36,921 nt of DNA from a virus (taxonomy: Duplodnaviria; Heunggongvirae; Uroviricota; Caudoviricetes), in IMG/VR virus record IMGVR_UViG_2531839667_000014, positions 1 to 36,921 of that record. One strand, 5' to 3'. The position numbers and the translations under genes were made by a program. How positions within the stretch are numbered: position 1 is the first letter of the stretch; every line of letters begins with the position of its first letter. Below the pieces are notes generated by a model. It was not told where the DNA came from. It saw only the letters and a program-made list of their open reading frames with translations, and ran no database searches. Below, one piece after another: positions 25,713 to 35,615 of the stretch.

Positions 25713-25991
25713 TTACCTCCAGATCCGTTGCTGGAATGTGCGGGACGGACGCGGTGGGCGTTCGGAATAAGGGAGTCTGACGTAGATTATCCAGAGACGA
25801 TAATCGAGGCTGAGGGCTTTCCTAAACTCATACCCACGTCTGCGGTAGTTATGAATCAGCCATTCGGCCTGTTCTTCAGTGCAGGGGTCATGCTGGTACC
25901 AGTCATATTTGAATGCGTGAGGGCGCCGCCCGTGCCCGCTGGCAAAGACGGCTGAATTATCAGAATTGTTAATTTTCTTGTAATGCACCAC
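25713..25991 (-). CDS. hypothetical prophage protein
   Basis: 92-aa ORF abutting the DUF968 gene on the same strand; no family recognised. Confidence 0.4.
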   Translation of the reverse strand: MVHYKKINNSDNSAVFASGHGRRPHAFKYDWYQHDPCTEEQAEWLIHNYRRRGYEFRKALSLDYRLWIIYVRLPYSERPPRPSRTFQQRIWR

Positions 25992-26057
25992 TACTGTCCT
26001 CGTAATGGTGCGACAGACGCCAGTTGTTCAGGCTGGCTTTGACTACGGCATTATAAT

Positions 26058-26252
26058 CTAGTCTTTCTTAATGCTGAAGTGACTGACCGAATCCACATGC
26101 GATTCTTTGGTGATCAGAATAACATCGGATGGCAATGGCATTACGATAAATTCACCATTCTCAAGAACTATTACTTCATAATTACCAGGTACAGAAAGCG
26201 CAGCAATTAATTCCTTATCGTTCATAACCAAAATCCCGTGAACTTTAAACAC
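26058..26252 (-). CDS. hypothetical protein
   Basis: 64-aa ORF; the annotated start is GTG with no spacing to a GGGGAG stretch, so the true start may be the ATG at 26225. Confidence 0.35.
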   Translation of the reverse strand: MFKVHGILVMNDKELIAALSVPGNYEVIVLENGEFIVMPLPSDVILITKESHVDSVSHFSIKKD

Positions 26253-26562: not shown

Positions 26563-26718
26563 TTACTCCTCAGGTTCGTAAGCTGTGAAGACAGCGACCT
26601 CCGTCTGTCCGGTTCGGATTCGTACCTCGCAGAGGTCTTTCCTCGTTACCAGTGCCGTCACAATGACGGTTAAACAGATGACGATCAGGGCGATTAGCAT
26701 CGCCTTTTGCTGCTTCAT
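26563..26718 (-). CDS. hok: Hok-family type I toxin (HokD/RelF-like)
   Basis: 51 aa MKQQKAMLIALIVICLTVIVTALVTRKDLCEVRIRTGQTEVAVFTAYEPEE; single TM helix; AAGGAG RBS; the track ORF is extended in frame by 19 codons. Confidence 0.9.
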   Translation of the reverse strand: MKQQKAMLIALIVICLTVIVTALVTRKDLCEVRIRTGQTEVAVFTAYEPEE

Positions 26719-27007
26719 AGCCTGCTTCTCCTTGCCTTTCGGCACGTAAGAGGCTAACCTACGTGTGCAAGTCATAGATATGGCCTCAGATTAATGTTAA
26801 GCGTCTTGCAGGACGCGTAATGTTAACTGGGGCTTTCTCTGCCTGCCTTACAGTGGCATGCCCGAGGCAGACAGCCTCAAGCACCCGCAGCAATTCTACT
26901 TAACTATCTTTCTCCCGCAAATCGTTTTTATCCCCAGCGGCAAATCGAATACACAACCAGTGCTACCGCCATTGCAATTCCTACTGTTGTGAATGCCTCA
27001 GGCCAGG

Positions 27008-28803: not shown

Positions 28804-29222
28804 GATAACACCTCCTGAAATTTCCCCTGATAAAACGCCAGCACACGCTGCATAGCTTCGCTCTTCCGGCACTCACGACAGATTATGTTCATACGCCTGT
28901 CGTAGCGGCGTATTTCTCCATCTTGTAACGACCGGATAAGACCCGGATCAACCACAGCAGGTTTCTTCACCTTTGCCCTTGATAGTTTTTTACGGGTGTT
29001 TTGCCAGTCCTTGCGAGCCTGTTCAGACGGAAATAACCCGTAGCCAGAATTGTATACATCACCACTGGCAACCAGCTCTCTGGCAAGAACGCTCATCAGA
29101 TATCTTGTCGTACCTGTCTTGGCTTCCAGTTGTCGTAACGTCTCGCGCCCACTCTGGCGCACGAGTTCAACAACCTGCCCCTTAATTTTTTCCCGCTCTT
29201 CTTGTGTAAAAACTTTTGCCAC
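28800..29222 (-). CDS. hypothetical protein with N-terminal helix-turn-helix
   Basis: 140 aa; HTH-like segment RETLRQLEAKTGTTRYLMSVLARELV; C-terminal CxxC. Confidence 0.5.
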   Translation of the reverse strand: MAKVFTQEEREKIKGQVVELVRQSGRETLRQLEAKTGTTRYLMSVLARELVASGDVYNSGYGLFPSEQARKDWQNTRKKLSRAKVKKPAVVDPGLIRSLQDGEIRRYDRRMNIICRECRKSEAMQRVLAFYQGKFQEVLS

Positions 29223-29262
29223 AAGTCCTCCTGAAAATTACCTCATGACCTGAAATCAACAA

Positions 29263-30210
29263 TTACCCTCTGAACCCAGGTGGAATTTCGGTATCCGGTT
29301 CAGAAATATGATTCACACAACGCTGTATTGGCGAACGCCCCAAGCGAATAACCAGCTCATCCCATTTTTCGCGAAGCTTTGACGGGCTCATGATGTTTTT
29401 TACCCAGAATGGATCCCGCTGTACCCGACCAAACATTTCACAAATTTGTCTGTGAGTTCTGCCATCCAGCATCCGCATTGTGCGCACATCATTGGCCCAT
29501 GCGGTCCAGTTTGGTTCTTTCGGTCGCATGATTTCGCCATCATCGCTGGCAGCCTGCTCGTAAAGACTCACGATTCGTCCCCAGATCCACTGCGCACACG
29601 CCAAATCTTCCTGGCTACCCCACTGGCGTTTTTTCGCACTGAACACAACCGCGTCAGGGTGTCGGGTTAAAAAATCCTGTTCAGCCGTCTGCGGCTCCGG
29701 TTGCGAAGCGTCCGGACAAGAAGATCTTTTATCTGACGGATCAGGTTTTAATACTGACGGATCGGGGCCAACCATCGCCCCCCTAACCGGATGTTTTTTA
29801 TCAACGGTTGATCCATCAAAATTTGACGGGTCAACCGTTGAGGGGTCAATGTTTGACGGGTCATTTTTTACCTGGTTAATTTTTCTTTTCGGTTTATATG
29901 CCTCACGCGCCGCCGCTGCTGCTGCTTCGAGTTTTTCCACATTAAGACGGTAGATATTGCTTTCATTACGCCCACCGACCTTACGTTCCTCCTTCGTCAG
30001 CCAGCCGTTCTTTTCCAGTTCTGCTATCGCAGCTTTAACCGTTGATTCACTCTTTGCCCCAATCTGACGACGAATGGTCTCCACTGCAGGCCATGACACA
30101 CCTTCGTCATTGCTGTAATCTGCAAGGCGAGCCATTACTGCCACCCTGGATAAGATCATGCCGGTGAAGGCACACCCTTCCCAGACAAGACCATGAAGCT
30201 TGCTGCTCAT
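29263..30210 (-). CDS. replication initiation protein (O-like, N-terminal winged-helix domain)
   Basis: 315 aa; N-terminal DNA-binding domain ...SWPAVETIRRQIGAKSESTVKAAIAELEKNGWL...; the linker is encoded by the iteron cluster; position downstream of cro-like and YdaT-like genes. Confidence 0.65.
   Translation of the reverse strand: MSSKLHGLVWEGCAFTGMILSRVAVMARLADYSNDEGVSWPAVETIRRQIGAKSESTVKAAIAELEKNGWLTKEERKVGGRNESNIYRLNVEKLEAAAAAAREAYKPKRKINQVKNDPSNIDPSTVDPSNFDGSTVDKKHPVRGAMVGPDPSVLKPDPSDKRSSCPDASQPEPQTAEQDFLTRHPDAVVFSAKKRQWGSQEDLACAQWIWGRIVSLYEQAASDDGEIMRPKEPNWTAWANDVRTMRMLDGRTHRQICEMFGRVQRDPFWVKNIMSPSKLREKWDELVIRLGRSPIQRCVNHISEPDTEIPPGFRG
29734..29900. repeat. candidate origin of replication: iteron cluster plus AT-rich tract inside the initiator gene
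   Basis: 9-mer TGACGGATC/TGACGGGTC at 29734, 29755, 29824 and 29854, an inverted near-copy at 29810, an inverted pair TCAACGGTTGA/TCAACCGTTGA, then a T/A-rich stretch at 29863..29900. Confidence 0.55.
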
Positions 30211-30233
30211 AAAAAACTCCGAACACCGTGCTT

Positions 30234-30659
30234 TTAGTGCATCACCAGGGCATTTCCCGCCGGACCACCACGATTCATCTGATTGAAACCAGCGATCGCC
30301 ACTGCGACAAAATCATCAGCGTCTCTCACCAGTCGTTCCCGCGTCTCCACCAGCTCCCGAAAATAGGCTGAACTGTGGCTGCGCATTCGGGCCACCAGCA
30401 GAGGTGGCATTGCCTTTTCGATCGCTGGTAACAACGCCTGAATTTTTTTAACCGCATCAGGGGTGTCTTTCTCCACCCAGCGGAAAATTTTCTGAGTATT
30501 GCGAGCCAGGGCTTCCGGATGGCTGTCGTCATACAGTTCCGGAAACGTCATACCCAACTCAAAATAAGCCTGGGTTATTCCAGCTGCCGGAACTTTTTCG
30601 CCATAAGTACGCGCCCAGGCATTCATCGCCATGCGGATGTGTTCATGCTTGATTTTCAT
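30234..30659 (-). CDS. YdaT-like / CII-position regulator (putative)
   Basis: 141 aa starting MKIKHEHI...; second gene of the rightward early operon after the cro-like gene; family call from memory and weak. Confidence 0.4.
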   Translation of the reverse strand: MKIKHEHIRMAMNAWARTYGEKVPAAGITQAYFELGMTFPELYDDSHPEALARNTQKIFRWVEKDTPDAVKKIQALLPAIEKAMPPLLVARMRSHSSAYFRELVETRERLVRDADDFVAVAIAGFNQMNRGGPAGNALVMH

Positions 30660-30918
30660 GAATCAACTCCGGTGTATTTGGTGTGTTAGCCTTATCTCCA
30701 ACAGGCAACCCGTCTGTTGGATTCGGGTATAAATCTGGTCGCAATTCATGAGGAGTCACCCCAGTTGCAATATAAATTTGACGAACCCGTTCTCCTGTCG
30801 GCACTCGACCTTTGTATTCATTTGCCCATTTGTGTATTTGAGACGGCCAAGCCCCTATTGCTCGCCCTAGCGGACGAATACCACCAGCAATCTTTATTGC
30901 TTTGTCCAATGCTGTCAT
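30643..30918 (-). CDS. Cro-like (YdaS/DicC-type) HTH regulator
   Basis: 91 aa; HTH-like segment near the N-terminus; GGAGG RBS 5 nt upstream; divergent from the repressor gene. Confidence 0.65.
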   Translation of the reverse strand: MTALDKAIKIAGGIRPLGRAIGAWPSQIHKWANEYKGRVPTGERVRQIYIATGVTPHELRPDLYPNPTDGLPVGDKANTPNTPELIHENQA

Positions 30919-30946
30919 ACAACCTCCAATTCAACTAATCACAACA

Positions 30947-31015
30947 ATTGTTCACTTAAAACGAACATAAGTCAACAACCTGAGGAATTGTTAGTGTTCA
31001 CTGAACGGTTATAAT
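30947..31015. promoter_or_regulatory. immunity switch: divergent promoters with operator repeats
   Basis: Minus-strand promoter TTGACT-N17-AACAAT (30975..30947) overlapped by TGTTC-N9-GAACA (30949..30967); plus-strand promoter TTGTTA-N16-TATAAT (30988..31015) with the palindrome GTTCAcTGAAC (30996..31006) in its spacer; TATAAT ends 6 nt before the repressor ATG. Confidence 0.6.
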
Positions 31016-31021
31016 TGCCAA

Positions 31022-31411
31022 ATGGACATGAGAAAAAAGCAATACGACACCCCGCTGGCAGAAAGGTTAGATACGATCTCGCAACAGCATCATTTAAGCG
31101 GTTCAGATTTAGCGCGTATCGCTGGTGTAGGTCGTTCATCAGTCAACGCATGGAAAAAAAGAGGGACAATCAGTAAAGATTCCGCAGCTAAAATTGCAGA
31201 AGCTACAAACGTTTCCCTTTCTTGGCTACTGACAGGAAAAGAAGATACAAATAGAGAGGCGCTTGATGATGATGAGAAAGCCCTGCTTGATGTTTACAGA
31301 AACCTGCCACCCGTAGAACGTAGAAATATGCTGGCAGCTTTTCAAATGCGACTTCAAAAACTGACCGAATTTTACTCAGAATACGTTGACCCAATCACAC
31401 GACAAAAATAA
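31022..31411 (+). CDS. CI/DicA-like repressor (HTH-XRE type, no peptidase domain)
   Basis: 129 aa with HTH ...LSGSDLARIAGVGRSSVNAWKKRG...; divergent from the cro-like gene; followed by a terminator and the dicB-operon promoter. Confidence 0.7.
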   Translation: MDMRKKQYDTPLAERLDTISQQHHLSGSDLARIAGVGRSSVNAWKKRGTISKDSAAKIAEATNVSLSWLLTGKEDTNREALDDDEKALLDVYRNLPPVERRNMLAAFQMRLQKLTEFYSEYVDPITRQK

Positions 31412-31432
31412 TTCTTTATTTTACAAAATGAT

Positions 31433-31455
31433 ACCGCCGTAAGGCGGTTTTTTTT
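31433..31455 (+). terminator. rho-independent terminator after the repressor gene
   Basis: ACCGCC-gtaa-GGCGGT followed by TTTTTTTT. Confidence 0.7.
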
Positions 31456-31466
31456 GCCTCTCGCGC

Positions 31467-31495
31467 ATTCATAGTGTTGACATTTGTTCACCTAA
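31467..31495 (+). promoter_or_regulatory. promoter of the dicB-type operon with overlapping operator
   Basis: TTGACA (31467..31472), 17-nt spacer, AACAAT (31490..31495); operator TGTTC-N9-GAACA at 31475..31493 has the same geometry as the site in the cro-like promoter. Confidence 0.6.
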
Positions 31496-31578
31496 AGAGA
31501 ACAATGTATTCCATCAAAGTACAACGGTGCGACAGGTCTTAGTTCCGCTACCCCGGCGTTAAGGGGAAATGAGGTCAC

Positions 31579-31734
31579 ATGGATACTATCAATCTTGGCA
31601 ACAACGAATCTCTGGCATACGGTGTGTTTCCCAACCAGGACGGTACGTTCACCGCTATGACGTATACCAAAAGCAAAACGTTTAAAACCGAATCTGGCGC
31701 ACGTCGCTGGCTGGAAAGAAACTCAGGTGAGTGA
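31579..31734 (+). CDS. ydfA: small protein, YdfA-equivalent (51 aa)
   Basis: Manually found ORF MDTINLGNNESLAYGVFPNQDGTFTAMTYTKSKTFKTESGARRWLERNSGE; length and operon position match K-12 ydfA as recalled; symbol assigned by synteny. Confidence 0.55.
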   Translation: MDTINLGNNESLAYGVFPNQDGTFTAMTYTKSKTFKTESGARRWLERNSGE

Positions 31735-31735
31735 T

Positions 31736-31864
31736 ATGGATTTCGACACAATCATGGAAAAGGCTTACGAAGAATACTTCGAAGGCCTTGCCGAAGGCGA
31801 AGAAGCTCTCAGCTTCAGTGAGTTTAAACAGGCGCTTTCCTGCTCGGAAAAATCTAACGGCTGA
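31736..31864 (+). CDS. ydfB: small acidic protein, YdfB-equivalent (42 aa)
   Basis: Manually found ORF MDFDTIMEKAYEEYFEGLAEGEEALSFSEFKQALSCSEKSNG starting 1 nt after the ydfA stop; symbol by size and synteny. Confidence 0.5.
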   Translation: MDFDTIMEKAYEEYFEGLAEGEEALSFSEFKQALSCSEKSNG

Positions 31865-31893
31865 TAAGCGAAGCAGCACCGCGAGGAATCAGT

Positions 31894-32112
31894 ATGCAGA
31901 AACGAGAACCCGTCATCATCGCGCCAGACTATACCGATGATGAACTTTATGAGTGGATGCACCAGAAAATTAAGGCAGCGCAGGACCTGAAATGGGCCAA
32001 TGAAGCCAGGGCTAAGCAGGCCGAAAATCTGTCTGCTCTGGAAAAAGATATTACCAATCTGGAAAAAGCAGCGGCATTAAGTATCGCCAGAATGATTACA
32101 TACCCGCGTTAA
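31894..32112 (+). CDS. ydfC: small protein, YdfC-equivalent (72 aa)
   Basis: 72-aa ORF with a coiled-coil-like sequence; third gene of the operon; symbol by size and synteny. Confidence 0.55.
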   Translation: MQKREPVIIAPDYTDDELYEWMHQKIKAAQDLKWANEARAKQAENLSALEKDITNLEKAAALSIARMITYPR

Positions 32113-32452
32113 TAGCTAAACAACGAAGCTAAGGTTGGTAATTAAGGAGTTCTCCACGGGTGAGGTGGAGTGCGTGCGCCGGACACGGGTGAACATCCGG
32201 CACTGACAGTTTACTGAAAGGATATTTCCCTGAAAAGTCAGACCATAACGCGAAAGCGCACGGCGAGGTAGCTGGTTCATAGATAGCCTGTCGTTAAATT
32301 TTCGTCGACCGTGCGCTTCCGGTTGTGGCAATCCGCGAAATGGCGCGGCGGTAAGTATGGCGGGGTTATTCCTTCCCCGTTGAGGACACCGGGTTGTCAG
32401 GTTGACCATACGCTTAAGTGACAACCCCGCTGCAACGCCCTCTGTTATCAAT

Positions 32453-32508
32453 TTTCTGGTGACGTTTGGCGGCATCTGTTTGCCCATGAACTGATGTCCG
32501 CCCTTTTT
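32453..32508 (+). ncRNA. dicF: DicF-like small RNA (cell-division inhibitor sRNA)
   Basis: TTTCTGGTGACGTTTGGCGG...GATGTCCGCCCTTTTT: the 5' and terminator-hairpin ends match K-12 DicF as I recall it; sits between ydfC and dicB; exact ends uncertain. Confidence 0.6.
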
Positions 32509-32677
32509 AAAGTGAATTTTGTGATGCGGTGAATGCGGCTAAGCGCACGCGGAACAGTTAAAGCTAAAAACAGTGTTATGGGTGGATTCTCTGTATCCGG
32601 CGTTAATTGTTAACTGGTTAACGTCACCTGGAGGCACCAGGCACCGCATCACAAAATTCATTGTTGAGGACGCGATA

Positions 32678-32866
32678 ATGGAAACGTTATTACCAAACGT
32701 TAATACGTCTGAAGGTTGTTTTGAAATTGGTGTCACTATCAGCAATCAGATATTTACTGAAGATGCCATTAATAAAAGAAAACACGAACAGGAACTGCTA
32801 AATAAAATATGCATTGTTTCGATGCTGGCCCGTTTACGTCTGATGCAAACAGGATGCAGGCAATGA
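32678..32866 (+). CDS. dicB: cell division inhibitor DicB
   Basis: 62 aa METLLPNVNTSEGCFEIGVTISNQIFTEDAINKRKHEQELLNKICIVSMLARLRLMQTGCRQ, near-identical to K-12 DicB from memory; GAGGA RBS; the track ORF is over-extended upstream. Confidence 0.9.
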   Translation: METLLPNVNTSEGCFEIGVTISNQIFTEDAINKRKHEQELLNKICIVSMLARLRLMQTGCRQ

Positions 32867-33054
32867 ATACGGCATTTGTACTCGTTCTGACTGTTTTTTT
32901 TGTTTCTGGTGAACCGATTGATCTTGTTATTGACATACATGACTCAATGGAAGAATGCATGACTGCCGCGGCAGAGCAAAAAATTCCCGGGAACTGTTAT
33001 CCTGTCGACAAAATTATTCGCATGAACAATAACGAAATCCCGGCAGGCCTTTAA
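32863..33054 (+). CDS. ydfD: YdfD-like small membrane protein
   Basis: 63 aa MNTAFVLVLTVFFVSGEPIDLVIDIHDSMEECMTAAAEQKIPGNCYPVDKIIRMNNNEIPAGL; ATGA overlap with the dicB stop. Confidence 0.8.
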   Translation: MNTAFVLVLTVFFVSGEPIDLVIDIHDSMEECMTAAAEQKIPGNCYPVDKIIRMNNNEIPAGL

Positions 33055-33143
33055 AGCCCCATAATAAATATCCGGTTTTATTTTTATATGTCAGCAATGG
33101 CAGGGATTTGTCCACCCTTAAATCTGTAATGAGGTAAAACAAA

Positions 33144-35615
33144 ATGAGTAAAGTCTTTATTTGCGCCGCCATTCCGGACGAACAGGCAACAGCAGAAGGC
33201 GCCAAACCTGTGGCCACTGCCATTGAAGCAGGCGACGAACGCCGGGCAAGAGCCAAATTTAGCTGGTTATTTCTGGAACAATACCCGGAAGCTCAGGACT
33301 GTGCTTATAAATTTCTTGTCTGCGAGGATAAACCCGGCATGGCCCGCCCTGCTCTCGATTCCTGGGATTCCGAATATATGCAGGAAAACCGCTGGAATGA
33401 GGAGTCGGCTTCCTTTGTTCCGGTCGACCCTGAACCGGATACAGAAACTGTTAACTTTAATCAGTTATCTGAAGACAAGCGGGCTGCTGTCCTTGTCAGG
33501 TTCGGTACACATGAAAACATCACCGTGGATATGGTCATCAATGCAAGCGGGCTTCTCGGCGATGACGAGATGACGACTTTTGATGGACACCTCACTGAAG
33601 CAATTATCAGGACTAAAGAAATTAACGCCATGTATCCTGAGCGTCAGACTGAGTACATCAACGATGCCAGACGTGATTTAAAACCAACAGCCAAATGGCC
33701 CGACGTTCAGGCGTATTTTCTCGAACGTAAAAAACGCATGGAAAAGGAGCGCAAAGAAGGTGGAGCATATAATTCCGTCGTCGATCTTGCCCGCGCCAGA
33801 GTCAACCGGCAAGGCACTGAAAACTCTGCAGGAAAAACTGACTCCGTAACTGCTGTCGTTCGTCGCGAATACAGGCAGACATGGAAAACACTGGATGAAG
33901 AACTGGCCTACGCTTTCTGGCCTGGTGATATTGATGCCGGAAACATTGACGGCAGCATCCATCGCTGGGCAAAAAATGAAGTTATCGACAAAGATCGCGA
34001 AGACTGGAAGCGTATTTCCGCATTAATGCGCAAACAACCTGATGCCGTTCGCTACGACCGTCAGACTATTTTTGGCCTTGTCCGTGAGCGTCCGATCGAC
34101 ATTCACAAAGATCCCGTGGCGCTGAACAAATACATCACTGAATACCTGGCGACAAAGGGCGTGTTTGAGGATGAAGAAACAGACCAGAGCACTGCTGATA
34201 TTCTCCAGCCGTCAGCAGCACAAACTGATGCAGTGGAAACTGAAGTATCTGATACCCAAAAAAATGAAAGCGCGCTGGAAACTGAACCATCTGTAGAGCG
34301 TGAAGGACCGTTCTACTTCCTCTTCACCGATAAGGATGGCGAAAAATATGGTCGTGCAAACAAACTTTCTGGTCTGAATAAGGCGCTGGCTGCCGGGGCT
34401 ACTGAAATCACGAAAGAAGAATATTTTGCCCGTAAAAACGGCACGTACTCAGGTTCACAACAAAATACTGGTGCATCTGACACGACCGCACAACCAGAGC
34501 CGGTAAAAGTTACCGCTGACGAAGTAAACAAAATTATGCAGGCAGCCAATATCAGCCAGCCTGACGCCGATAAGTTGCTTGCTGCCTCTCGCGGAGAATT
34601 TGTTGCAGGGATTAGCGACCCGAATGATCCGAAATGGGTGAAGGGGATTGAAACCCGCGATTCTGTAAACCAGAACCAGCAAGAATCGGAACAGAACGAC
34701 CAGAAAGCGGAACAAAACAGCCCAAATGCGCAACAAAACGAGCCAGAAACGAAACAATCCAAACCAGTAACGCAACAGGAACCTGAAAAAGTCTGCACCG
34801 CCTGCGGTCAGAGCGGTGGCGGCAACTGCCCTGATTGTGGCGCGGTGATGGGCGACGCAACATACCAGGAAACATTCGATGACGAGAATCAGGTTGAAGT
34901 TCAGGAAGACGATTCGGAGAAAATGGAAGGCGCTGAACATCCACACAAGGAGAATGCTGGCAGCGATCAGGATCACGCCAGCGATAGTGAAACTGGCGAG
35001 ACGGCAGATCCCTTAATTGCGGTGAACGGTCATCACGTTATCACATCCACCAACAGAGCGGGGATTCATCTGATGATCGACCTTGAAACCATGGGAAAAA
35101 ATCCTGATGCCCCGATTATCGCAATAGGTGCAATATTTTTCGATCCGCAAACCGGAGATATGGGGCCGGAATTTAGCAAGACCATCGATCTGGATACTGC
35201 TGGCGGAGTCATTGATCGTGACGTCATTAAATGGTGGCTTAAGCAATCACGTGAGACGCAATCTGCCATTCTGACCGATGAAATTCCGTTAGATGATGCA
35301 CTACTGCAATTGCGGGAATTTATAGATGAAAACTCCGGTGAATTTTTTGTTCAGGTCTGGGGAAATGGAGCCAACTTCGACAACGTGATTTTACGCCGTT
35401 CATACGAACGACAGGGTATCCCCTGCCCGTGGCGCTACTGCAACGATCGCGATGTACGCACAATCGTTGAGCTGGGGAAAGCTATAGACTTCGATGCCAG
35501 AACGGCTATCCCATTCGAAGGTGAGCGCCACAATGCACTTGATGACGCCCGTTACCAGGCAAAATACGTTTCAGCTATCTGGCAAAAACTGATCCCGAAT
35601 CAGGCTGATTTTTAA
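33144..35615 (+). CDS. large multidomain protein: RecE-like N-terminal/central regions, zinc ribbon, C-terminal DEDDh 3'-5' exonuclease domain
   Basis: 823 aa; C-terminal motifs DLET, NGANFD and HNALDDA (DnaQ-like DEDDh); CxxC-x8-CxxC (CTACGQSGGGNCPDCG); Q/N/E-rich low-complexity linker; central segment ...LLAASRGEFVAGISDPNDPKWVKGIETRD... resembles Rac RecE from memory. Confidence 0.8.
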   Translation: MSKVFICAAIPDEQATAEGAKPVATAIEAGDERRARAKFSWLFLEQYPEAQDCAYKFLVCEDKPGMARPALDSWDSEYMQENRWNEESASFVPVDPEPDTETVNFNQLSEDKRAAVLVRFGTHENITVDMVINASGLLGDDEMTTFDGHLTEAIIRTKEINAMYPERQTEYINDARRDLKPTAKWPDVQAYFLERKKRMEKERKEGGAYNSVVDLARARVNRQGTENSAGKTDSVTAVVRREYRQTWKTLDEELAYAFWPGDIDAGNIDGSIHRWAKNEVIDKDREDWKRISALMRKQPDAVRYDRQTIFGLVRERPIDIHKDPVALNKYITEYLATKGVFEDEETDQSTADILQPSAAQTDAVETEVSDTQKNESALETEPSVEREGPFYFLFTDKDGEKYGRANKLSGLNKALAAGATEITKEEYFARKNGTYSGSQQNTGASDTTAQPEPVKVTADEVNKIMQAANISQPDADKLLAASRGEFVAGISDPNDPKWVKGIETRDSVNQNQQESEQNDQKAEQNSPNAQQNEPETKQSKPVTQQEPEKVCTACGQSGGGNCPDCGAVMGDATYQETFDDENQVEVQEDDSEKMEGAEHPHKENAGSDQDHASDSETGETADPLIAVNGHHVITSTNRAGIHLMIDLETMGKNPDAPIIAIGAIFFDPQTGDMGPEFSKTIDLDTAGGVIDRDVIKWWLKQSRETQSAILTDEIPLDDALLQLREFIDENSGEFFVQVWGNGANFDNVILRRSYERQGIPCPWRYCNDRDVRTIVELGKAIDFDARTAIPFEGERHNALDDARYQAKYVSAIWQKLIPNQADF

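Follow-up and report, generated by a model that had tools for sequence, protein, structure and literature searches.

The stretch of DNA analyzed here (the window; 36,921 bp, virus record IMGVR_UViG_2531839667_000014) was identical to positions 2,514,591-2,551,511 of the chromosome of Escherichia coli DCE7. The 36.9-kb window is a lambdoid E. coli prophage that spans from the tail-fibre genes to an integrase gene adjoining yccA, and it looks complete. Head, tail, terminase and lysis genes, a Q-type antiterminator, RusA genes and a hokD/sok module were annotated in it. Annotation of the early region gave an O-like replication gene, YdaT, a small 'transcriptional regulator' and a helix-turn-helix (HTH) protein, beyond which came DUF1391, ydfB, ydfC, dicB, a RecE-like exonuclease and int, in this order. 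Between the YdaT/replication module and the dicB/recE early-left operon, a region of 103 bp separates a cro-like gene on the minus strand from a divergent repressor gene on the plus strand. The original prediction, made from the sequence alone, had described an immunity switch here, and the two flanking genes, which code for a CI-like HTH repressor and a Cro/YdaS-like protein, agreed with that description. We consider it very probable that the region is the switch between lysis and lysogeny in a lambdoid E. coli prophage, organized around a short repressor of the DicA/GfoR type.

Reading of the sequence and a promoter scan placed two divergent promoters in the region, both as originally predicted (Table 1). 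On the repressor side, TTGTTA-N16-TATAAT formed a PRM-like promoter with a perfect -10 hexamer. Only 6 nt (TGCCAA) lie between this hexamer and the repressor ATG, a second in-frame ATG follows at 31028, and no Shine-Dalgarno (SD) sequence, that is, no GGAG-like run, was found between the -10 and either ATG. On the cro side, TTGACT-N17-AACAAT formed a PR-like promoter, overlapped by TGTTC-N9-GAACA. Its predicted start near 30940 is followed by the SD sequence GGAGG (30927..30923), 5 nt before the cro ATG at 30918. The overlapping repeat, the putative main right operator, occupies the PR spacer and 4 bp of the PR -10. The original prediction had counted three operator-like sites within 30941-31021; there are two, and the third good site lies outside, in the spacer of a PL-like promoter downstream of the repressor terminator. 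PL is followed by a ydfA-like gene (DUF1391), ydfB, ydfC, dicB and the recE-like exonuclease gene. Another candidate, at 30989-31007, overlapped the PRM -35 and had 2 mismatches to the operator pattern; it was dropped since it was not kept in other genera.

When each is read on its own strand, PR is TTGACT-TA-TGTTCGT-TTTAA-GTGAACA-AT and PL is TTGACA-TT-TGTTCAC-CTAAA-GAGAACA-AT. In both, the operator starts 2 nt past the -35 and ends with the four bases that open the -10. Such a layout corresponds, as far as the sequence tells, to an OR/OL arrangement, and a protein bound at either operator must exclude RNA polymerase. The two operators are the only exact matches to TGTTC-N9-GAACA in the 36,921 bp, where 0.06 were expected, and none of 100 shuffles gave two. 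Both are located in spacers of sigma-70-like promoters, at mirror positions flanking the repressor gene. Related loci contained a hairpin and T-run equivalent to the terminator that follows the repressor gene.

Table 1. Predicted features of the switch and adjoining genes (window positions; a dot marks features given without strand).
Feature	Position	Strand	Description
Repressor gene	31022..31411	+	129 aa from first ATG; PGAP start 31028
PRM-like promoter for repressor	30988..31015	+	TTGTTA 30988-30993, N16, TATAAT 31010-31015; scan 10/12 matches
Putative weak operator at PRM	30994..31013	.	Half-site GTGTTCACTG 30994-31003; 19-bp frame 30995-31013, right half GGTTATA over -10
PR-like promoter for cro	30947..30975	-	TTGACT 30975..30970, N17, AACAAT 30952..30947; scan 9/12 matches
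Putative main right operator	30949..30967	.	TGTTCAC-TTAAA-ACGAACA, 19 bp, pseudo-symmetric; one of two exact TGTTC-N9-GAACA
PL-like promoter	31477..31505	+	TTGACA, N17, AACAAT; scan 10/12 matches; 3' of repressor terminator
Putative left operator (OL)	31485-31503	.	TGTTCAC-CTAAA-GAGAACA; in PL spacer; second exact TGTTC-N9-GAACA
Intrinsic terminator after repressor gene	31433..31456	+	ACCGCCGTAAGGCGGT then T8; terminator scan
cro-like gene	30643..30918	-	91 aa, YdaS family; Pfam YdaS_toxin E 3.4e-10; PHROG 35 transcriptional repressor, E 1e-24
YdaT gene (CII-like regulator)	30234..30659	-	83% identical to CP-933P YdaT; PDB 8bt1 E 7e-77
Putative YdaT operator (OM)	30649..30666	.	TTGATTTTCATGAATCAA, at cro/ydaT junction as in CP-933P
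Immunity cassette	30671..31540	.	Most of cro, OR, repressor gene, terminator, PL/OL

The arrangement was compared among 16 loci encoding repressor relatives at 44-82% identity, from about 12 genera (E. coli, Lelliottia, Salmonella, Klebsiella aerogenes, Enterobacter, Cronobacter, Raoultella, Serratia, Cedecea, Buttiauxella, Arsenophonus and Phlomobacter). In all 16, roughly 103-116 bp of intergenic DNA separated a cro-like gene from the repressor gene, and the -10 hexamer was located 6-7 nt before the repressor ATG; the bases between were not conserved. TGTTCAC operators at PR, PRM and PL were common to three loci of other genera, those of Lelliottia, Salmonella and K. aerogenes. When these three were aligned with three E. 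coli copies, the invariant blocks of the intergenic region were the cro SD, ATTGTTCAC, GAACA, GTCAACA, TTG, GTGTTCACTG, GGTTATAATTGC and ATG. GTCAACA and ATTGTT are the invariant blocks of the PR promoter, and TTG and GGTTATAATTGC those of PRM. The operator half-sites were invariant and the operator centres varied. At PL/OL, Lelliottia, Salmonella and K. aerogenes had the composite TTGAC-N4-GTTCAC-N7-GAACAAT in the same position, as did another two prophages of E. coli (L023 and L024); the O157:H7 copy (L002) had a half-site with a one-base variant, TGTTCAT, and did not match the exact composite.

In the remaining loci, the three positions were occupied by operators of the TGTTAGC-N5-GCTAACA type, the TGTTGAC type or another type, and the DNA-binding regions of both proteins differed with them. 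The recognition helix of the repressor was ...NAW(K/R)KRG in TGTTCAC loci, where the Cro HTHs were near-identical, and NAWY, NGWF, NGWH or TNWF in the other loci, where the Cro HTHs also differed. The N-terminal HTH of Cro was 71-80% identical in loci with the same operator, compared with 46-57% in loci with another operator. Of the evidence at hand, this co-variation speaks most strongly for the repressor and Cro both reading these sites. It also suggests repressor position 45 as a specificity determinant, with K or R corresponding to TGTTCAC and Y, F or H to the other types, mainly TGTTAGC. The TGTTCAC specificity in combination with this repressor (WP_001380402) appears uncharacterised, and no paper citing WP_001380402 was found.

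In the repressor, a linker connected an N-terminal Cro/C1-type HTH (residues about 11-71) with a C-terminal helical hairpin (83-121). Pfam matched it with Phage_CI_repr (E 1.8e-12) and HTH_3 (E 2.6e-8) and with no other family; Peptidase_S24 gave no match at E <= 0.01. Its AlphaFold2 model, with a pLDDT (predicted local distance difference test) of 82.8, was all-helical and consisted of a five-helix HTH, a low-confidence linker and hairpin helices at 83-94 and 97-121. The original prediction had stated that the repressor has no LexA-like peptidase domain, and the length of 129 aa, the Pfam result and the all-helical model all pointed the same way. An S24 domain, a Ser/Lys dyad and an Ala-Gly site, which mark autocleaving repressors, have no place in such a short all-helical protein, and the repressor cannot autocleave. 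Because it lacks the autocleavage domain, RecA-stimulated cleavage is not expected. The closest fold in PDB was that of SinR in the SinR-SinI complex (1b0n_A; E 3.7e-4, 106 aligned columns), followed by the DNA-binding domains of 434, P22 c2 and C-proteins.

Family relationships were examined with profiles and pairwise searches. DicA aligned with a profile of 23 homologues of the repressor over its full length (hhalign 97%, E 2.6e-11, 112 columns), and the two proteins were 26% identical in BLASTP (E 5e-7). The DicA model of NCBIfam (NF007257) was the nearest one; because the score of 38.7 bits was far under the curated cut-off of 101, the repressor is best classified as a relative of DicA and not an orthologue. 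A search of 1.8 billion representatives yielded the GfoR-like protein P0089, 46% identical over the full length (E 2e-32). P0089 is a cluster representative and not GfoR itself, and its N- and C-termini match the peptides encoded by the primers used for tagging and cloning gfoR (Lemire et al. 2011). A common Salmonella homologue, P0052, was examined as a possible named Gifsy repressor, and its cluster members had no informative names. Within the family, the C-terminal segment LPPxERRNMLAAFQMRL...DPxTRQK was more conserved than the HTH. The Cro/C1-type HTH, the length of about 125-135 aa without S24 and the homology over both domains assign the repressor, by sequence comparison, to the DicA/GfoR class of short prophage repressors. 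Most strains of E. coli have homologues of gfoR/gtgR, a group to which DicA and RacR belong (Lemire et al. 2011, PMC3121763).

A different combination of domains was observed in an Stx2e-converting prophage of E. coli STEC409 (L026, 735-1133), the repressor of which had another DNA-binding domain at its N-terminus, together with the same C-terminal domain (PPVE..NML.AF.MRL). This repressor points to domain shuffling in the family and to a common partner for the C-terminal domain.

The cI gene of lambda is expressed from PRM as a leaderless mRNA, and its -10 hexamer is 6 nt before the AUG. The predicted transcript of the repressor gene is likely leaderless too, starting at A31022, and the first ATG is likely the main start of the repressor. 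The original prediction had proposed a leaderless or nearly leaderless mRNA, and comparison supported it well through the spacing in 16 of 16 loci and through precedents in relatives. In paaR2, the repressor gene of prophage CP-933P, GATAAT-TACCAC-ATG gives the same geometry as in our repressor gene, a -10 followed by 6 nt and ATG, and leaderless translation of paaR2 was proven with 5' RACE (rapid amplification of cDNA ends), N-terminal sequencing and mass spectrometry (PMC8630535). In E. coli K-12, differential RNA sequencing found leaderless messages for dicA, racR and ymfK (PMC4681348), which for racR was also shown by primer extension and promoter mutagenesis (PMC9638921).

Among known systems, DicA/DicC of Qin, a cryptic prophage of E. 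coli K-12, has the same layout, with a cro-like gene, an operator in the cro promoter, the repressor, and PL leading to ydfA-ydfB-ydfC-dicF-dicB. DicA binds the operator Oc, TTGTTAGTCATAACTAACAA, in the dicC promoter (PMC3441716), and Oc has the same form and position as our main right operator. The half-site is TGTTCAC here, against TGTTAGT in the DicA system, with a 1-bp longer centre. Similarity between our Cro and DicC was undetectable (E 0.08). Unlike Qin, which has rem, the prophage carries no rem homologue; YdaT and replication genes are located on its cro side, and it appears to be complete. The repressors of Gifsy-1 and of Gifsy-3 in Salmonella, GfoR and GfhR, are short and without a peptidase domain like our repressor; they differ from it in operator specificity.

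The PaaR2/YdaS/YdaT switch of CP-933P in O157:H7 (Jurenas et al. 2021, PMC8630535), which we retrieved with the 5' end of paaR2 rebuilt from published primers, has the same architecture as the switch studied here. It contains OR and OL operators, and its repressor, without a peptidase domain, was unresponsive to mitomycin C. Homology of PaaR2 was, however, rejected for the DNA-binding domain, as BLASTP gave no alignment at E <= 100, and hhalign aligned only the C-terminal 39 residues, weakly (42% probability). YdaS of CP-933P is dissimilar to our Cro, and the CP-933P operators are built on GTTTAGTAA (PMC8630535), unlike the TGTTCAC sites here. The CP-933P repressor gene is followed by, and co-transcribed with, the toxin-antitoxin pair paaA2-parE2, in contrast to the terminator and then DUF1391, ydfB and ydfC in our prophage.

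In CP-933P, YdaT was footprinted on OM, which overlaps there a YdaT-controlled promoter directed toward the repressor gene (PMC9986795), and the structure of this YdaT has been solved (8bt1). OM in our prophage was the sole match to TTGATT-N6-AATCAA with zero mismatches in the window. Because this exact OM adjoins a YdaT with 83% identity to the protein that was crystallised, the two prophages have the CII-like establishment module in common, though neither the repressor nor Cro is related to its CP-933P counterpart.

Alignment of positions 29001-33200 of the window with blastn delimited the part that is exchanged. CP-933P (L020) matched at 29265-30670 with 86.8% identity and again from 31533 (87-95% identity in the flanks at the DNA level), and the Qin match (L021) began at 31541 with 91.5% identity, continuing through an early-left operon 91% identical to that of the prophage. 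On the left, the identity with CP-933P ended at 30670, inside the 3' end of cro. The cassette between these edges, about 870 bp long, differs from CP-933P and Qin, and both flanks are common to them. An immunity cassette between shared flanks is, judged by these alignments, the usual mosaic pattern of heteroimmune lambdoid phages. This cassette was present in 82 of 5,426 complete E. coli genomes, and the carriers of the immunity type were prophages of O157:H7, other Shiga toxin-producing E. coli (STEC) and enterotoxigenic E. coli (ETEC) strains.

The switch resembles CI/Cro of lambda in its divergent PR and PRM and in operators located in or overlapping promoters on both sides of the repressor gene. 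Lambda has three graded 17-bp sites per side, whereas one strong site on each side and one weak site on the right were found here. The S24 domain for autocleavage and oligomerisation of lambda CI has its counterpart in the helical hairpin of our 129-aa repressor, and CII is replaced by the unrelated YdaT. SinR of B. subtilis combines a 434-type HTH with a helical hairpin that serves for oligomerisation and is captured by the small antagonist SinI. With 24% identity and no role as a phage repressor, SinR is a structural analogue only, and it bears only on the possible action of an antirepressor.

Repressors of the DicA/GfoR class are not cleaved and are inactivated by small antirepressors (PMC3121763, PMC10448788). 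The Gifsy antirepressors GfoA, GfhA and GftA are under LexA control (Lemire et al. 2011, PMC3121763). DicA has no cleavage site, is countered by the antirepressor Rem and flips spontaneously through DicC; derepression in relatives also occurs via spontaneous Cro-dependent flipping and via heat or urea. In our prophage, an open reading frame (ORF) of 55 codons (26058-26225, minus strand, in a cassette at 25977-26252) fills the slot that rem has in Qin, between hokD and a DUF968 gene. The flanks of this slot aligned to Qin on both sides, and the insert between them was unrelated. The ORF cassette was found in 84 of the 5,426 genomes and together with the immunity cassette in 76, that is, in 76 of the 90 genomes having either one. 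One genome had the ORF with another immunity cassette, and its repressor differed in the DNA-binding domain and had the same C-terminal domain. By its position the ORF is a candidate antirepressor. Still, we regard it as improbable that the ORF codes for the cognate antirepressor of this class of repressors, acting on the conserved C-terminal hairpin (LPPVERRNMLAAFQMRL). The 55-aa product has no sequence similarity to Rem, and its model was of low confidence (pLDDT 69.7) and found no fold match in BFVD. Furthermore, the co-occurrence may be largely clonal, most of the genomes being O157:H7, and there were exceptions both ways, including six genomes with the immunity cassette and without the ORF.

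From the sequence anatomy, the conservation across genera, the co-variation of operators with DNA-binding regions and the family relationships, which were all obtained directly, we infer transcription starts, the pairing and affinity of proteins and sites, and the route of induction as follows. Dimers of the repressor would bind the 19-bp pseudo-symmetric operators with the half-site TGTTC(A)(C), one in the PR spacer for the side of cro, ydaT and replication, the other in the PL spacer for the side of ydfABC, dicB and recE. Bound there, they would obstruct RNA polymerase and hold the prophage in a silent state. The repressor itself would be made from the PRM-like promoter with a start at the A of AUG, on a leaderless mRNA, and the weak half-operator in the PRM spacer and -10 most likely lets Cro or excess repressor shut the repressor gene. 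Cro, translated from a normal SD-bearing leader from PR, would recognize the same operators, and YdaT at its own operator would provide CII-like establishment transcription toward the repressor gene. Derepression would be expected to occur through a small antirepressor acting on the C-terminal hairpin, or by spontaneous flipping of a bistable switch.

Several observations weigh against parts of this scheme. For induction, no homologue of Rem was detected in the window by tblastn, no antirepressor family was found among the PHROGs for ten early-region proteins, and no 20-mer in the window was better than 12/20 against the LexA box consensus. The only match to CTGT-N8-ACAG, at 12623, was inside a DUF4035 gene just downstream of the tape-measure gene. 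In this the prophage differs from the Gifsy phages with their LexA-controlled antirepressors, as neither a LexA box nor a gene resembling GfoA or Rem could be found in it. The site at PRM is a half-operator only, with 3 of 7 positions symmetric. Two other sites predicted for DicA from sequence, proximal to PRM, were not bound in vivo (PMC3441716). Because of the half-operator and these two unbound DicA sites, binding of the repressor at 30994-31013 is uncertain. The fold match to SinR was modest (TM 0.40-0.49), the functional roles assigned to the switch are drawn by analogy, and a productive cycle after induction may perhaps be impossible, given an IS200 insertion and the lack of a helicase-loader gene.

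Other explanations of the sequence features were weighed against the same data. That the repeats and promoter-like hexamers arose by chance in an AT-rich intergenic region might be argued from the promoter scan, which gave 3 sites in 30500-31800 against 2.2 expected, and from the operator pattern with 2 mismatches, which was hardly enriched (28 vs 17.9 expected). The two exact operators at mirror positions, however, are far above expectation, and the operators are conserved across genera and co-vary with the DNA-binding proteins; these comparative data refute a chance match, to which we attach practically no probability. For the promoter of the repressor gene, the original prediction had put forward GTTCAcTGAAC, which is indeed present in the spacer at 30996-31006. 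A closely spaced dimer site at this 11-bp palindrome would fit its perfect form, which the window shares with the three other E. coli copies that were inspected. In the loci of Lelliottia, Salmonella and K. aerogenes, however, TGAAC becomes TGCGA, TGAGA or TGAGT, so that the element reads GTTCACTGCGA, GTTCACTGAGA or GTTCACTGAGT outside the E. coli copies, while the half-site and the PR and PL operators are retained and the recognition helix is nearly the same as that of our repressor (K or R at one position). Moreover, the half-sites of the palindrome are 1 bp apart, compared with 9 bp in the strong operators, and one dimer geometry cannot serve both. We thus hold the palindrome very unlikely to be the functional site. 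Because GTGTTCACTG is invariant and the bases completing the palindrome vary, the conserved PRM element is rather the half-site at a fixed distance from the -10, with the -10 region as the right half of the 19-bp frame. In GTTAGC-type relatives, the equivalent site is a better repeat, GTTAGC-N5-GCTTAT.

Two further alternatives concern the start of the repressor and the present state of the prophage. If translation began at the second ATG (31028), the message would have a leader of about 6 nt and not be strictly leaderless. PGAP gave 31028-31411 as the coding sequence in DCE7 and the second ATG also in O157:H7, and many homologues are recorded in databases as 127 aa. In the same sequence context, though, PGAP was inconsistent and chose the first ATG in PapRG-04-4. 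The conserved -10 with its 6-7-nt spacing favours the first ATG, relatives with a single ATG have it exactly at this position, and no SD precedes 31028. Exclusive use of the second ATG is accordingly unlikely in our estimate. Both ATGs are conserved in the group, and since gfhR, a relative, uses two functional in-frame AUGs (Lemire et al. 2011, PMC3121763), both starts are possibly used here. The other alternative is that the switch has ceased to govern the choice between lysis and lysogeny and survives in a defective, Qin-like prophage, where it would mainly hold a toxic dicB-type early-left operon off, with occasional bistable flipping. An IS200C transposase was inserted at 2098-2556, between the lom-like and tail-fibre genes, and the O-like gene (29263-30210) was not followed by a DnaC/P-like helicase-loader gene, unlike in the O157:H7 relative that carries the same repressor; replication of the prophage may be defective. 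The ydfABC-dicB operon driven by PL is 91% identical to that of Qin, and none of 50,697 records in a phage collection, that is, no isolated phage there, carried the repressor at >= 60% identity (best matches 59% or lower). Against this, the integrase, exonuclease, Q, lysis, terminase, head and tail genes were all annotated as intact. We judge this role possible, with the odds against it; it concerns the present function and not the mechanism of the switch, and is compatible with our main explanation.

Some observations were made in the transcripts around the switch. About 60 nt at the start of the transcript predicted from PL (31510-31575) were kept across genera despite differing upstream operators, with a conserved stretch of ...CATCAAAGCACAACGGTGCGACAGG...GTTCCGC..CCCGGCGTTAAGGGG. 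RNA folding of this leader (31512-31582) was no better than that of shuffles (z = 0.55), and a nut-like or processing site is possible. The toxin gene hokD at 26563-26886, in a nin-like region, was accompanied by a full-length match of sok antisense RNA (Rfam RF01794, 100 bits); sok and two tRNAs were all that the Rfam scan detected. Of the small RNA gene dicF, only the 5' 29 nt (32453-32481) were kept compared with K-12 (93%) and the 3' half diverged, and DicF did not reach the Rfam gathering threshold although ydfC and dicB flank its site.

The leaderless message, the missing peptidase domain and the compact operator set are the documented norm for the family and its analogues. Leaderless repressor mRNAs and control by antirepressors were already established in close relatives, and the region opens no new question in this respect. 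It shows, cleanly and in a compact form, that heteroimmune variants of the DicA/Gifsy family arise by swapping of a cassette: cro, the operators and the repressor are exchanged, while the C-terminal domain of the repressor does not change, nor does the geometry of the promoters with its leaderless start. The operators and the likely non-SOS induction bear on prophage induction and superinfection immunity in O157:H7, STEC and ETEC strains.

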